From IMG/VR virus record IMGVR_UViG_2537561946_000006: a DNA stretch of 64,000 bases; one strand, 5' to 3'. Every line of letters begins with the position of its first letter. The stretch's first letter is position 1. Position numbers: made by a program. The DNA is from a virus. Lineage: Duplodnaviria; Heunggongvirae; Uroviricota; Caudoviricetes. Shown here piece after piece: positions 55,801 to 63,575 of this stretch.

Positions 55801-58800
55801 ATGCCGTAACATCCGTTTGGGATGCGACTGCCACGGCCCCGTGATTTCTCTGCCTTCGCGGGTTTTGAATGGTTCGCGGCGGCATTCATCCATCCACTCG
55901 GTAACGCAGATCGGATGATTGCGGTCTTTGCGGTAAATCCGGCATGTGCAGGATTCGTTGTCCTGTTCAAAGTCCATGCCGTCAAACTGCTGGTTTTCGT
56001 TGATGATGCGGGACCAGCCATCAACGCCCACCACCGGAACGATGCCGTTCTGCTTATCAGGGAAGGCGTAAATTTCTTTCGTCCACGGATTAAGGCCGTA
56101 TTGGTTGGCGACGATCAGCAATGCGATGAACTGCGCATCGCTGGCATCGCCTTTAAATGCTGTCTGGCGAAGAGTGGTGATCAGTTCCTGTGGGTAGACA
56201 GAATCCATGCCGACACGTTCAGCCAGCTTCCCTGCCAGCGTTGCGAGTGCTGTACTCATCCGTTTTATACCTCTGAATCAATATCAACCTGGTGGTGAGC
56301 AATGGTTTCAACCATGTACCGGATGTGTTCTGCCATGCGCTCCTGAAACTCAACATCGTCATCAAACGCACGGGTAATGGTTTTTTTACTGGCCCCGTGG
56401 CGTTGCAAATGATCGATGCATAGCGATTCAAACAGGTGCTGGGGCAGGCCTTTTTCCATGTCGTCTGCCAGTTCTGCCTCTTTCTCTTCACGGGCGATCT
56501 TCTGGTAGTGACGCGCCCAGCTCTGAGCCTCAAGACGATCCTGAATGTAATAAGCGTTCATGGCTGAACTCCTGAAAATGGCTGTGAAAATATCGCCCGC
56601 GAAATGCCGGGCTGATTAGGAAAACAGGAAAGGAGATTAGTGATTCAGGCCGTTACCGCGTCCGTCGAGAAAAACTTCTACGAGCAAATCACGGGTATAA
56701 GTGCGTTCGATGCCGCGATGCAGATATACTGGCAACTTTCCCGGCGAGCCTGGCTAACCGGGACCAGAACGAACTGAACGAAATCCGCCGCCAGTGGGTT
56801 CTGGCTTTCCGGGAAAACGGGATCACCACAATGGAACAGGTGAGCGCCGGAGTGCGTGTCGCCCGTCGGCAGAATCGACCATTCCTGCCATCACCCGGGC
56901 AGTTTGTTGCCTGGTGCCGGGAAGAAGCATCCGTTACCGCCGGACTGCCAAACGCCAGCGAGCTGGTTGATATAGTTTACGAGTATTGCCGGAAGCGCGG
57001 GCTGTATCTGGATGCAGAGTCTTATCCGTGGAAATCAAACGCGCACTACTGGCTGGTTACCAACCTGTATCAGAACATGCGGGCCAATGCGTTGACTGAC
57101 GCGGAATTACGGCGCAAGGCTGCCGATGAACTGTCCTGTATGACCGCACGAATTAACCGTGGTGAGGCTATACCTGAACCAGTAAAACAACTTCCTGTCA
57201 TGGGCGGTAGACCTCTAAATCGTGCACAGGCTCTGGCGAAGATCGCAGAAATCAAAGCTAAGTTCGGGCTGAAAGGAGCGATGAAATAGAGCTAAAGTAT
57301 TAGCTTAAAAATAAAGTATACCTAGCGAATATAATCTAGGACTAGTTGTAACGCCCGAAATGATTGATTGCGTGAGCAACAAAATTTTTCTTCCATTGTT
57401 GTGAAATCATTTAGCCATAAAGTTTATGCAGAGATTTTATTTTATTTTTGAGTTGATTTTTTTGTAACGAGCTGTATATTTCGCGCCTCTTGTCATACCA
57501 GTTATTTTTTTCATTATATTCATAACGTTGATTGAACTATGACCACTGTGAATAAAAAGTTAAAAAAAACTGCATCTGGCGCGATTACATGGTCGGTAAT
57601 TGTTACCCAGATATTATCTCCAGTTTCTCTTTCTTTGATCCCAGCAAACAGTTTTGCATCATCTGGTAATAAAGATGTTACGCAAACTTATGCCAGCGAT
57701 GAGCATGCAAATAAAGTGGCCTCATTTGCAGCAAGTGCAGGTCAGAGCCTAGCAAATAATAACGCAAGTAGTTTTGCTGTAAATACTTTATCAACTCAGG
57801 CGACAAAAGAGGTCGTCGACTGGTTGCAACAATATGGCAATGCGCGCATCAAGCTTAATGTCGATGATTCTTTTTCCTTGAAGGATTCATCATTCGACTT
57901 TTTATATCCATGGCTGGATACTCAGGATTATGTGCTATTCAGTCAGACATCACTACATCGTACTGATGACCGAAATCAGACCAATATTGGTTTGGGGATT
58001 CGTCATTTCACTCCTGATAACGCAATGTTGGGTGCGAATGTTTTCTATGATTACGATTTAAGTCGCAGTCACTCTCGTGCAGGTTTTGGGGTTGAGTACT
58101 GGAGAGATTATTTCAGGCTTGGTGTAAATACCTATTTTGGTTTGTCTGACTGGAAGAACAGTCGGGATATTGATGATTATCTGGAAAGACCCGCAAATGG
58201 CTGGGATTTTTCTGCTGAAGGATGGCTACCTGCTTATCCGCAATTAGGGGCATCCATTCAGTTTGAAAAATATTATGGTAAAAATGTCGGGTTATTTGGA
58301 AGCGATAATCTTCAGGAAAACCCTTACGCAGTTACTGGGGGAATTTCTTATACACCAGTTCCTCTGATTAAGTTTTCTGCACAGCATAAGCAAGGACAGA
58401 GCAACGTTCACGATACAACCTTTGGTGTTGAGTTTAATTATCGCCCGGGCGTTTCCCTTGCTGAACAGCTTAGCAGTGACAATGTTGCTGTTATGCGAGA
58501 AGTCCAGAACCGGCGTTATGATTTTGTTGAACGAAATAACAACATTGTTCTGGAGTACAAGAAGAAGCATGCACTGAAAATCAGCTTACCAGAGTCTGTT
58601 CAGGGGGAGGGGGAATCAATCATCCCTGTAACACTGACAATCAACAATGCTAGTGGTGGTATCAAGTCTGTACAGTGGAATGATAGTGCATTCACTGCGG
58701 CTGGCGGTAAGATCAGTGGAAATGGCACATCATGGCAGATCACTTTACCGGCTTATAAAAGCGGAGATGTAAATTCGTGGAATGTTGGAGCCACAGTCCA

Positions 58801-61800: not shown

Positions 61801-63575
61801 TGTATTCTACAGCGGCCACAACAAAACCAGCTTCTGCCAGAGCCATTCTCATTTCAATAAATTTGTCATGTTCAGAAGACATGAATCCGCCGCCGGGATA
61901 ATAAATAATGGCTGGTTTTAAATCATTTGTTCGCGGGACAAGAACTGACATGTGAAGCTGTCTGACAGAACGAGTTCCTTTTATCTGGGAATAAACAACA
62001 TCACCAATGAGATCGACCTGGTTTCTGGTCGGTGAAACACTAATGATATCTGCACCCGGGGTGTAACCAGGAAGATTAGTCTGGACAGGTGTTGCACAAC
62101 TCCCGACCGACATGGCCATTGACATACCATACAATAGTGTTGCAGATGATAATATCTTGTTAATTTTCATGTTTTACATGCCTTGACTTATCGGATGAAA
62201 TTCTCTTACTGAATTTAACGGCAGTTTAATAGCCGTACAACTCGTGGTAGCCAGGGAAATATCCCAGTCGTGGTTAAGGTTGTACTTGACGGCTATTATT
62301 TCAACAATGCTTAAAGTGAGAGCTTAAGGTTATGCGTATGTTTTACAGTCCGAGTAGATTCTGACCAATAGCTTCTTTGTATAATTCTGTCAGAAATAAA
62401 TCTTGGCTTGCATGAAGTTTGAGACCTTATCTTGTTTGATTATGAATAATCAATTCGCCATAATTGTACCACCGGAGCCTGAACAACTCCGGTGACTTCT
62501 GCGCTAAACGGGGACGTTTATGCGCACACACAATCCAAACTCTCTTCTCCCTTCACAGATGCAGAAATGCACCTGCGTTTTTTTGCATCCAGCGTCTGAC
62601 CTCTGTGGAGGTGAAGCGTGAACCTCCCACAAGACGGCATCAAATTACATCGCGGCAACTTCACCGCTATCGGTCAGCAGATCCAGCCTTATCTGGAGGA
62701 CGGAAAATGCTTTCGCATGGTGCTTAAACCGTGGCGTGAGAAACGCAGTCTTTCCCAGAATGCACTCAGCCACATGTGGTACAGCGAAATCAGTGAATAC
62801 CTCATCAGCAGGGGGAAATCGTTCGCTACCGCAGCATGGGTAAAAGATGCTCTCAAACACACATACCTCGGTTATGAAACCAAGGACCTGGTTGATGTCG
62901 TAACCGGCGAAATCACTACGATCCAGTCGTTACGCCATACCTCAGATCTTGATACCGGAGAGATGTATGTCTTCCTGTGTAAGGTTGAAGCCTGGGCGAT
63001 GAATATTGGCTGCCACCTGACTATTCCGCAGAGCTGCGAGTTCCAGCTGCTGCGCGACAAGCAGGAGGCGTAATGGCTACACCGCTTATTCGTGTCATGA
63101 ACGGACACATCTACAAAGTACCAAATCGTCGTAAGCGTAAACCTGAGCTGAAGCCATCCGAAATACCAACACTGCTCGGGTATACCACCAGCCTGGTTGA
63201 TAAAAAATGGTTGCGACTGGCAGCAAGGAGGAGTCATGGCTGATTTGAGAAAAGCAGCGTGTGGTCGGGAATGCCAGGTAAGAATCCCTGGCGTATGTAA
63301 TGGCAACCCTGAAACGTCTGTACTGGCACATATCCGGCTGGCTGGATTGTGCGGCACCGGTATTAAACCGCCAGACCTGATTGCCACCATTGCATGTTCT
63401 GCCTGTCACGATGAGATCGACCGTCGCACGAATTTTGTTGACGCTGGATATGCAAAAGAATGCGCGCTGGAAGGTATGGCGAGAACGCAGGTTATCTGGC
63501 TGAAAGAGGGGGTAATTAAGGCGTGAATACTTACCACATCACACTACCCTGGCCGCCGAGCAATAACCGCTACTA

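Follow-up and report, generated by a model that had tools for sequence, protein, structure and literature searches.

In a defective, lambda-like E. coli prophage, the gene for an inverse autotransporter (IAT) of the FdeC type converges with the gene for a predicted secreted esterase. The IAT represents a distinct, hitherto unnamed lineage and is under purifying selection. The two genes are probably independently acquired morons of DLP12/lambda-type phages, one coding for an IAT that would act in lysogenic conversion and the other for an exported esterase. By analogy with its relatives, the IAT is most likely an adhesin or biofilm factor. The arrangement was found in the window (the entire 64,000-nucleotide stretch that was analyzed). 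The initial annotation had treated it as unfamiliar, but it is common: the joined pair is present in 425 of 5426 complete E. coli genomes (about 8%), including the ST131 reference strain EC958.

Overall organization of the locus

The arrangement of the adhesin and esterase genes is real and is present in the window as first noted. The IAT gene is located at positions 57539–61090 on the plus strand (1183 residues), and the esterase gene at 61127–62170 on the minus strand (347 residues). They are flanked by a 5′-truncated P gene and by ybcN (NinB-like), and no ren gene is found between the P remnant and ybcN in the window. In the related phage 4A7, ren lies directly 3′ of P, and the convergent pair occupies the P–ninB slot where ren would be, as initially described.

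The P remnant (56727–57289, plus strand) matches the Pfam family Phage_lambda_P at profile positions 46–162, and it is a pseudogene in the RefSeq annotation of an identical strain. Homology to P starts at 56727, immediately after a deletion of roughly 3.5 kb (junction 56726|56727) that removed the 5′ part of P, O, the immunity region, and part of kil. In a BLAST comparison with an ST131 prophage (L003), positions 56726 and 56727 of the window correspond to positions 15691 and 19189 of that prophage. At the other end, ybcN (62618–63073, plus strand) is supported by Pfam NinB, by NCBIfam PRK09741 (278 bits), and by the RefSeq annotation of the identical strain. The conserved nin region (ybcN-ninE-ybcO) starts with this gene and is interrupted by an IS3-family element from about 63650. 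The prophage remnant adjoins yagU.

The breakpoints of the modules could be mapped to within a few bases, by comparison with phage 4A7, L003, and an esterase-less prophage (L004). The left end of the IAT module, together with its AT-rich leader (57280–57538, plus strand), takes the place of the last three codons of P and the whole of ren. Homology to P of phage 4A7 stops at 57279, and the C-terminus of P reads KGAMK in the window as compared to KGASV in 4A7, placing the breakpoint within the last P codons. The right end of the esterase module lies in the region upstream of the esterase gene (62171–62476, minus strand), as homology to L004 resumes at 62476. The GC content is 49.8% for the window, 43.5% for the IAT gene, 30.1% for the 249-bp leader, and 51–55% for the flanks.

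Structure of the inverse autotransporter

The protein has the domain organization of a type Ve autotransporter, with an N-terminal 12-strand β-barrel and a C-terminal passenger of immunoglobulin-superfamily (Big) domains. The barrel covers approximately residues 57–341 (nucleotides 57707–58561) and is followed by eight Ig-like modules (residues 342–1183). The Pfam IAT_beta profile (PF11924) is matched by residues 57–334 over nearly its entire length (profile positions 3–279 of 279; E = 4e-101; 338.6 bits against a cut-off of 22.3). The barrel also matches the full length of the solved barrels of invasin (4e1t, E = 9e-74) and intimin (4e1s, E = 7e-63), and there is a further match to the D00 domain of intimin (6tqd, E = 9e-10). 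In the passenger, Pfam Big_1 is found in five stretches (185 bits) and Invasin_D3 in six (158 bits). A D/KxxGN..G motif recurs with a spacing of about 100 residues, at positions 474, 587, 690, 793, 895, 996, and 1102, giving the eight modules. The initial description of an intimin/invasin-type barrel with Ig-like repeats is therefore upheld.

Neither a LysM nor a lectin domain was found in the protein with Pfam, the former in agreement with what had been noted at first. The protein has no cysteine residues and consequently lacks a disulfide-bonded lectin domain of the intimin/invasin kind. A barrel and a chain of Big domains, without LysM or a C-type lectin cap, is the organization of the FdeC-type subfamily. 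We infer a long signal peptide (residues 1–40) from the N-terminal sequence, which resembles the extended signal peptide of FdeC; the alignment to FdeC starts at residue 15. Between alleles, the dN/dS ratio of the gene is 0.11–0.16, and that of the barrel is only 0.04–0.06. In PHROGs, the IAT is already present as prophage families of unknown function.

Length variation and the C-terminal tip

The length of 1183 residues is correct for the window, but it is one of several. Sizes of 1064, 1183, 1302, 1421, and 1540 residues are found, depending on the number of copies of an Ig-like module of 357 bp (119 residues), and most alleles have 1302 residues. This module was located at 58848–59196 (plus strand) by a BLAST comparison of the window with L003 and by an alignment of the size variants. 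The window has one copy, and the ST131 prophage L003 has three in tandem. Within 57200–62700, Tandem Repeats Finder reported nothing, and comparing the protein with itself by BLASTP gave no internal repeats at E ≤ 1e-3; the module is visible only through comparison with the longer alleles.

The last module (residues 1066–1183; 60734–61087, plus strand) forms the tip of the passenger. It starts like a Big_1 domain, and its last 70 or so residues have no relatives outside the IAT family. No entry of the Protein Data Bank matched the tip in sequence at E ≤ 10, and no significant match to the C-terminus of FdeC was observed. Among 1.84 billion representative proteins, query residues 150–218 were covered only by members or fragments of the IAT family, the best match being the 1064-residue protein (P0241), an in-frame deletion variant of the IAT. 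The homologs usable for a deeper alignment are all more than 90% identical. An AlphaFold2 model of residues 861–1183, computed from the single sequence, has a mean pLDDT of 52. Only its first Ig module is predicted with confidence, as a β-sandwich, and the tip is not confidently predicted.

The leader region and the terminator

The AT-rich region upstream of the gene, stated earlier to be about 250 bp long, contains two promoter-like sites (57453–57480 and 57490–57517), although shuffled sequence yields such matches at least as often (11.9 expected versus 10 in the actual sequence). The Shine-Dalgarno sequence is weak. DNA homology to a chromosomal homolog in E. albertii begins at 57473 and takes in the proximal promoter-like site, so that the proximal 66 bp of the leader are conserved. 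Transcription of the IAT would start at its own promoter in this leader and end at its own terminator.

The leader had also been read as typical of a silenced gene. The AT-richness itself stands, and silencing by H-NS is suggested by this AT-richness only. FdeC is H-NS-regulated, according to Easton 2014 as cited in PMC6714894, and by analogy H-NS probably silences the IAT gene under laboratory conditions. The chromosomal IATs of E. coli are not detectably expressed by wild-type strains in vitro (PMC6714894), and the prophage gene may therefore usually be silent as well.

The IAT module includes a GC-rich terminator hairpin (61102–61122) with a 9-bp stem, which separates the two genes; the esterase module joins it in the T-run that comes next (CTTTTTAC). 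The hairpin folds at −25 kcal/mol on the plus strand (z = −4.6), with UCUUUUU after it, as compared to a weaker −17 kcal/mol on the minus strand (z = −2.6), where the T-run is displaced. The bidirectional terminator proposed initially is thus supported only in part. The same hairpin is found 3′ of the IAT in L004, which lacks the esterase. In phage 4A7, CTTTTTACAGG is also present, but a different hairpin precedes it. A scan of the minus strand upstream of the esterase gene revealed no consensus promoter.

The esterase

The esterase (61127–62170, minus strand) is predicted to be a secreted α/β-hydrolase of the BD-FAE/fold-3 family. It matches Pfam BD-FAE (PF20434; E = 1e-44, 153 bits against a cut-off of 26.8) more strongly than Abhydrolase_3 (PF07859; E = 1e-22, 81 bits against a cut-off of 25), and it corresponds to phrog_3341 ('esterase'). 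No equivalog was matched in NCBIfam. The protein contains the motifs expected of a fold-3 esterase, PGGG92 for a GGG-type oxyanion hole and GDSAG162 for the serine nucleophile (G-x-S-x-G), and the latter is retained in 118 of 120 homologs. The fold and both motifs are shared with BD-FAE/carbohydrate esterases and with the family IV (HSL-like) esterases. The nearest solved structures are Lip_vut4 (6nkf), a GH43-CE protein (6mly), and acetyl xylan esterases (6xyc and 6tkx). Homologs with 63–80% identity are found in Pectobacterium, Dickeya, Pantoea, Kluyvera, and Rhizobium, and the closest relatives are in plant-associated Enterobacterales. Overall, an enzyme of the BD-FAE/carbohydrate-esterase kind is a better description than a plain HSL-type lipase, which corrects the HSL-type label of the initial annotation.

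The esterase is a candidate lipoprotein on the strength of a sequence motif. The N-terminal segment has a lipobox-like VGSC with Cys25 and an Ala at position +2, which fits a loose lipobox pattern, and the enzyme is probably exported by Sec and anchored to lipid. The lipobox is present in five E. coli and phage copies but absent from 112 of the 120 homologs, among them the protein that represents the largest E. coli cluster and has Tyr25 instead. A strain-specific change to Cys25 was considered and ruled out, as the TGT codon occurs in all five independent copies.

Distribution and origin of the two genes

Of the 5426 complete genomes of E. coli, 560 have the IAT and 681 the esterase, and the open reading frame of the IAT is intact in several hundred genomes. 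Hundreds of closed genomes share the identical order P-IAT-esterase-ybcN at several attachment sites. A check for the same arrangement in other prophages was thus positive: the prophages L003 and L009 are at icd, the site of the near-complete lambda-like prophage of EC958 that carries the pair. L004 adjoins ybhC. The slot is fixed, and presence or absence of its contents is polymorphic among mosaically different prophages at no fewer than three attachment sites.

All combinations of the two genes are observed in this slot, as expected of morons. The IAT is found without the esterase in the prophages L004 and L008. The esterase is found without the IAT in at least 250 genomes and in isolated lambdoid phages (4A7, Lambda_4C10, D2, 1W, 3W, PhiR47_2, and Perceval; L002 is an example). 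Each gene occurs alone, and they are therefore two separate morons that are joined at the T-run of the terminator; the single adhesin–esterase island proposed initially does not hold. The esterase modules of phage 4A7 and related phages share 98–99% identity with the one in the window. In 4A7, the slot contains qacE, a recombinase gene, and the esterase gene; in the window, the IAT module replaces ren, qacE, and the recombinase gene. In the K-12 prophage DLP12, an island between ren and ybcN (emrE/qacE, the ybcK recombinase, ybcL, and ybcM) occupies the same slot, with the same right-hand neighbors (ybcN-ninE-ybcO-rusA). The variable slot between P and ybcN would have received both morons, with recombination at the terminator T-run joining them and neither needing the other. 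The deletion of 3.5 kb in the immunity and replication region and the IS elements would have crippled the prophage afterwards.

No IAT was observed in the isolated, sequenced phages among 50,697 phage records, and when these records were searched by tblastn for barrels of any IAT, just two of them matched, non-phage or fragment records. From the distribution across prophages we infer that the gene has been spread by infectious phage. A scan of GTDB species representatives found a single real relative, the E. albertii homolog, which is in a non-phage chromosomal context, in addition to a stray contig of 357 bp. In some lineages, IS insertions are present in the 3′ end of the IAT gene or adjacent to the gene.

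Comparison with FdeC and other inverse autotransporters

The closest named paralog is FdeC (EaeH; Nesta 2012; Heinz 2016, PMC4943183). The two proteins share 42% identity over the N-terminal 640 residues (15–656), with 59% in the barrel and about 30% beyond, including the Ig domains. They have in common the long signal peptide (predicted in the IAT), the barrel, the chain of Big_1-type Ig domains, the lack of LysM and of a C-type lectin cap, and an AT-rich upstream region. The tips, however, are unrelated. The IAT of the window is shorter than FdeC (about 1415 residues), as had been noted, and the family spans 1064–1540 residues. The fdeC gene has a fixed locus downstream of aldo/keto reductase genes in the ecp-ykg region, whereas the IAT gene is in lambdoid prophages at variable attachment sites.

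An ordinary chromosomal fdeC placed in a phage context by an assembly artifact, the case that would have undone the initial annotation, is an explanation that the results refute. FdeC is indeed the closest named paralog, and in related strains fdeC lies only about 25–30 kb away, in the same chromosomal neighborhood (the ecp-ykg region). Nevertheless, the identity is too low for an ortholog, the gene order recurs in hundreds of closed genomes, and EC958 has both genes, its fdeC being listed in Data Set S1 of Goh 2019 (PMC6714894).

The other E. coli IATs (intimin, YeeJ, IatA/YchO, IatB/SinH, IatC, and IatD) share the PF11924 barrel and an IgSF passenger with the prophage protein, but the latter does not reach the NCBIfam cut-off for any named inverse autotransporter. 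The scores, in bits against the respective cut-offs, are 403/2400 for the IatC N-terminal model, 348/1400 for intimin_all, 318/999 for SinH, 308/1125 for Ilp, 305/750 for YrIlm, 287/710 for Cronobacter Inv, and 272/508 for YchO. An identification as intimin was rejected in view of its score, the lack of LysM and lectin domains, and the location in a prophage rather than in LEE. The main survey of E. coli IATs covers six named genes at conserved chromosomal positions (Goh 2019, PMC6714894) and scored EC958 for fdeC, iatA, and iatB only. In the literature searched, neither an inverse autotransporter carried by a prophage nor the P-IAT-esterase-ybcN arrangement was named or studied in any paper.

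Possible functions

In the proposed mechanism, the BAM/TAM machinery would insert the barrel into the outer membrane, as in the family generally (PMC4943183, PMC6714894), and the passenger would be threaded outward into a rod roughly 30 nm long. With the tip thus displayed to a ligand of host or abiotic origin, the lysogen would gain a capacity for adhesion or biofilm formation. FdeC is an adhesin whose assembly is helped by TAM (PMC4943183), and IatB, IatC, and IatD are surface-located and promote biofilm formation (PMC6714894). By this analogy, the prophage IAT probably shares their surface display and their roles in biofilm formation or adhesion. The exported esterase would be of the carbohydrate/feruloyl type.

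It is unlikely that adhesin and esterase work as a single unit and were selected together, for example with the esterase stripping acetyl or feruloyl groups from host or dietary glycans and thereby exposing a ligand of the adhesin. The two genes are adjacent and convergent on one common hairpin in most carriers of the IAT, and export to the envelope is predicted for the two proteins alike. However, each gene is also found alone (the esterase in seven or more isolated phages), their joint is a mosaic breakpoint, and clonal ST131 genomes may account for much of the co-occurrence. The possibility that the IAT is inert cargo, silenced and decaying in a defunct prophage and without a present function in the source strain, appears quite unlikely. 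The prophage is defective, with its immunity and replication genes deleted and an IS3 truncation, IS-disrupted alleles exist, and the IATs of E. coli show little expression in vitro. Moreover, the allele in the window has the fewest module copies among full-length alleles, the 1064-residue deletion variant aside. Against this, the reading frame is intact over 3.5 kb here and is intact in several hundred genomes, and the dN/dS values indicate purifying selection, with the barrel highly constrained.

The IAT could also serve the phage itself, by masking or altering receptors (superinfection exclusion) or by promoting cell–cell contacts that aid phage spread. Prophage-encoded envelope proteins often act in exclusion, and the gene takes the early-region slot of ren, which is itself related to exclusion. 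On the other hand, the protein is built like a long-stalk adhesin, with FdeC as its closest counterpart, the close homolog in E. albertii is chromosomal and non-phage, and neither the IAT nor the esterase matched a PADLOC defense model. We regard such a role as very unlikely. Returning to the two independent morons, an extension of this reading is possible but tentative: the protein would be an eighth, overlooked IAT lineage of E. coli and the first shown to be phage-borne, a length-variable, FdeC-type lysogenic-conversion factor with an orphan tip, moved by lambdoid phages and making a measurable contribution to colonization or biofilm formation, for example in ST131.

Adhesins of the intimin/FdeC class are colonization factors and vaccine candidates (FdeC and SinH). 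Those catalogued in E. coli are at fixed chromosomal loci, whereas the present one travels on lambdoid prophages; about a tenth of complete E. coli genomes have it, yet it was left unscored in the main survey. Provided that it is expressed in the host, strains that are otherwise close would differ in a surface antigen brought in by phage, and its reach from the cell surface would change with the number of repeats. What looked odd in the window is common and explicable lambdoid mosaicism.

Lambdoid prophages are known to carry other accessory envelope proteins that alter the surface of the lysogen, such as lom, bor/iss, and the Eib trimeric autotransporters. These differ from the IAT in structure, being an 8-strand Ail/Lom barrel, a lipoprotein, and type Vc proteins, respectively, as compared to type Ve. 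They also differ in position, with slots in the late or tail region rather than in the early region between P and ninB. The ST131 prophage that carries the IAT also contains iss/bor.

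Organization of the adhesin gene

The two convergent genes are located where the initial annotation placed them, with a 1183-residue inverse autotransporter (IAT) encoded at 57539–61090 on the + strand and a 347-residue esterase at 61127–62170 on the − strand. A search against Pfam finds a complete IAT_beta barrel in the adhesin (residues 57–334, E 4e-101), followed by a passenger with five Big_1 and six Invasin_D3 stretches and no LysM domain, which upholds the earlier description of an intimin/invasin-type barrel with Ig-like repeats and no LysM. Two barrels of known structure, those of Yersinia invasin (4e1t, E 9e-74) and intimin (4e1s, E 7e-63), are each matched from end to end.

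The first module of the passenger matches the D00 domain of intimin. Beyond it, a D/KxxGN..G motif recurs at a spacing of about 100 residues (positions 474, 587, 690, 793, 895, 996, and 1102), and the seven repeats together with the D00-like module give eight Ig-like modules. There is no cysteine in the protein, which excludes a disulfide-bonded lectin cap as in intimin or invasin. The last ~70 residues, at the tip, have no relative in the PDB and none outside this adhesin family among 1.84 billion representative proteins. An AlphaFold single-sequence model of the C-terminal part is confident for one Ig module only.

The 249 bp upstream of the gene have a GC content of 30.1%, compared to 49.8% for the window, in agreement with the AT-rich region of about 250 bp noted earlier. 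A promoter-like site is located at 57490–57517, and the adhesin may be transcribed from its own promoter within this leader. H-NS silencing has been reported for FdeC (Easton 2014), and the IAT gene is probably silenced in the same way.

The adhesin and esterase genes are separated by a 36-bp spacer, with a 9-bp GC-rich hairpin at 61102–61122. The hairpin was initially described as a bidirectional terminator, which is borne out for the + strand (−25 kcal/mol, z −4.6, followed by UCUUUUU), while the − strand is weaker (−17 kcal/mol, with a displaced T-run). Transcription of the adhesin gene would stop at this hairpin, and N-antiterminated phage transcription would be expected to read through it.

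Comparison with FdeC and other relatives

FdeC of E. coli SMS-3-5 can be aligned to residues 15–656 of the adhesin with 42% identity. The conservation is higher in the barrel (59%) than in the Ig modules (about 30%), and the last 118 residues of the adhesin have no significant match in this FdeC. The NCBIfam equivalog cut-offs for IatC, intimin, SinH, Ilp, YrIlm, Inv, and YchO are not reached, and the placement of the lineage is based on pairwise and HMM comparisons only.

The possibility raised at the outset, that the adhesin is a chromosomal fdeC orthologue and the phage genes a misassembly, is refuted by this level of identity and by the presence of the same gene order in hundreds of closed genomes. 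Moreover, the ST131 reference strain EC958 is positive for fdeC in a survey of E. coli inverse autotransporters (Data Set S1), in which it was scored for fdeC, iatA, and iatB only (Goh et al. 2019, PMC6714894). The same strain carries the cassette P-IAT-esterase-ybcN (chromosome 1266117–1271462, equivalent to 31118–36463 of the comparison sequence L009), and the two adhesin genes therefore coexist. The EC958 prophage, located at icd, is lambda-like and apparently complete, and reads P, IAT (1421 residues, WP_022645049.1), hydrolase, ybcN ... Q, lysis genes, iss, and head genes.

Among the GTDB species representatives, a relative of the adhesin is found only in E. albertii (NBRC 107761, L006 7932–8711). 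It shares 80% amino acid identity over residues 1–237, where the match is cut by the contig end, and is located directly downstream of ydcSTUV-patD, in a chromosomal rather than a phage context. The DNA homology to this copy (window 57473–58249) reaches back to 66 bp before the ATG and includes the promoter-like site, which suggests that the gene and its proximal promoter moved together. The E. albertii locus is a possible donor context of the phage-borne gene.

Envelope-protein-encoding morons are well known in lambdoid phages. Public databases already list both proteins, though generically named, the adhesin in PHROGs as two families of unknown function, and a literature search in one library found no paper on a prophage-borne IAT. 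It is the combination that appears new, a distinct FdeC-type lineage that is phage-borne, variable in length, widespread, and unscored in the main survey.

Two modules in a defective prophage

There is a clean deletion junction at 56726|56727, which joins the kil-proximal region to the middle of P, two points that are 3.5 kb apart in the ST131 prophage. Part of kil, the repressor and cro-like genes, ydaT, O, and the 5′ end of P are gone, and with the loss of the immunity and replication-initiation genes the prophage is defective. IS3-family transposase reading frames are found at both ends of the remnant (48977–49816 and 63653–64000). The right-hand element cuts the nin region just past ybcO, so that rusA, Q, and the lysis and structural genes are missing. 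The window thus carries a dead descendant of a prophage of which nearly complete forms exist elsewhere.

The adhesin and esterase genes were regarded initially as one island. However, each is found without the other. The esterase occurs alone, at 99% identity, in the isolated lambdoid coliphages 4A7, Lambda_4C10, D2, 1W, 3W, PhiR47_2, and Perceval, with the gene order P-ren-qacE-orf-recombinase-esterase(−)-ybcN. The order P-IAT-ybcN, with no esterase, is found in the prophages of CUVET16-394 (beside ybhC) and GN25, which have differing immunity and head modules. The left end of the IAT module lies within the last three codons of P, whose C-terminus reads ..KGAMK* in the window and ..KGASV* (overlapping ren) in 4A7. 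Its right end is at 61129, just past its own hairpin, and the esterase module spans 61123–62476. The stretch common to both modules is CTTTTTAC; in phage 4A7 a different hairpin precedes this same T-run. The observations of the initial annotation are confirmed, and its adhesin and architecture stand, but the single island does not. The arrangement reflects the usual mosaicism of lambdoid phages, at a slot known to vary.

The esterase, best regarded as an independent, oppositely oriented cargo gene, is a BD-FAE/fold-3 α/β hydrolase by Pfam, with the motifs PGGG92 and GDSAG162. The closest solved structures are a metagenomic lipase (6nkf), a GH43-carbohydrate-esterase fusion (6mly), and acetyl xylan esterases (6xyc and 6tkx). 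Homologues with 63–80% identity are encoded on the chromosomes of Pectobacterium, Dickeya, Pantoea, Kluyvera, Klebsiella, and Rhizobium, and one from Dickeya was named ferulate esterase by its source. The earlier label of lipoprotein HSL-type esterase is only loosely right in its second part. As for the first, a lipobox-like VGSC is present, and its Cys25 codon (TGT, 62096–62098, − strand) is conserved in all five of the copies checked from E. coli and phages (the window, SC434, phage 4A7, and two ST131 strains). In comparison, the lipobox is absent in 112 of 120 homologues, from plant-associated bacteria and including one large E. coli cluster representative (Tyr25), and most homologues have an ordinary signal peptide. 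A lipid anchor seems to be a derived trait, specific to the phage-borne copy, and lipoprotein status is a reasonable but unproven prediction.

Distribution, variation, and possible function

Among 5426 complete E. coli genomes, the IAT barrel is present in 560, the esterase in 681, and the intact junction of the two in 425, and the arrangement does recur in other prophages. None of the isolated phage records carries an IAT barrel of any kind. Close homologues of the adhesin are confined to E. coli, with lengths of 1064, 1183, 1302, 1421, and 1540 residues, of which 1302 is much the most frequent. These steps are due to a 357-bp module, present as a single copy in the window (58848–59196) and as three tandem copies in ST131. 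IS elements are found at or near the 3′ end of the gene in some lineages. In several clinical lineages the gene or the adjoining spacer is broken by IS3/IS600 or IS66 (homologue cluster P0010, 182 members; hits H6 and H14–H22), giving a 1420-residue product with a scrambled C-terminus, and the tip is thus lost recurrently.

The adhesin is most likely a lysogenic-conversion adhesin or biofilm factor. By analogy with the family (PMC4943183, PMC6714894), it would be exported by Sec, the barrel inserted by BAM/TAM, and the passenger exported as a hairpin. The passenger may form a rod, with eight Ig modules in this allele and as many as eleven in the longest one, and binding of a ligand by the tip would provide the lysogen with adhesion or biofilm capacity.

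That the adhesin and esterase work as a functional pair is unlikely, given the esterase alone in coliphages and the adhesin alone in the CUVET16-394 and GN25 prophages. It is also rather improbable that the adhesin is inert cargo, a silenced and decaying gene in a dead prophage: dN/dS between allele groups is 0.11–0.16 (0.04–0.06 for the barrel, about 0.2 for the passenger, and 0.09 for the tip), and this purifying selection indicates that the gene is maintained. A role of the adhesin in exclusion, serving the phage, is very improbable, as PADLOC has no match for it or for the esterase.

Other features of the region

Environmental E. coli strains of the SC434 type match the region at 100%. Their gene order in RefSeq is integrase, IS3, PACE transporter and LysR regulator, exo-bet-gam, P pseudogene, IAT, hydrolase, ybcN-ninE-ybcO, and IS3, with yagU/ykgJ/ecp adjoining the remnant. 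SC434 and the window are not identical throughout, as there is an offset of about 526 bp somewhere in 51117–57290.

From the annotation of an identical strain, a PACE-family multidrug/biocide efflux gene (− strand) and a divergent LysR regulator (+ strand) are located at 50659–52105. This further cargo pair has the integrase/IS3 end on one side and the exo-bet-gam block on the other, in a b-region-like position. A second phage-like gene set occupies approximately 1–47000, with large reading frames (for example, 1158 residues at 35173–38649), and in a related strain the genes upstream include one for a capsid protein, one for a baseplate protein, and two more integrases. The 183 bp upstream of ybcN (62435–62617), which include a 33-codon reading frame, show about 90% conservation across ~2800 E. 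coli genomes and many lambdoid phages. The matching stretch in the phage 82 record (X92588) is annotated with −35/−10 signals and a possible regulator-binding site.
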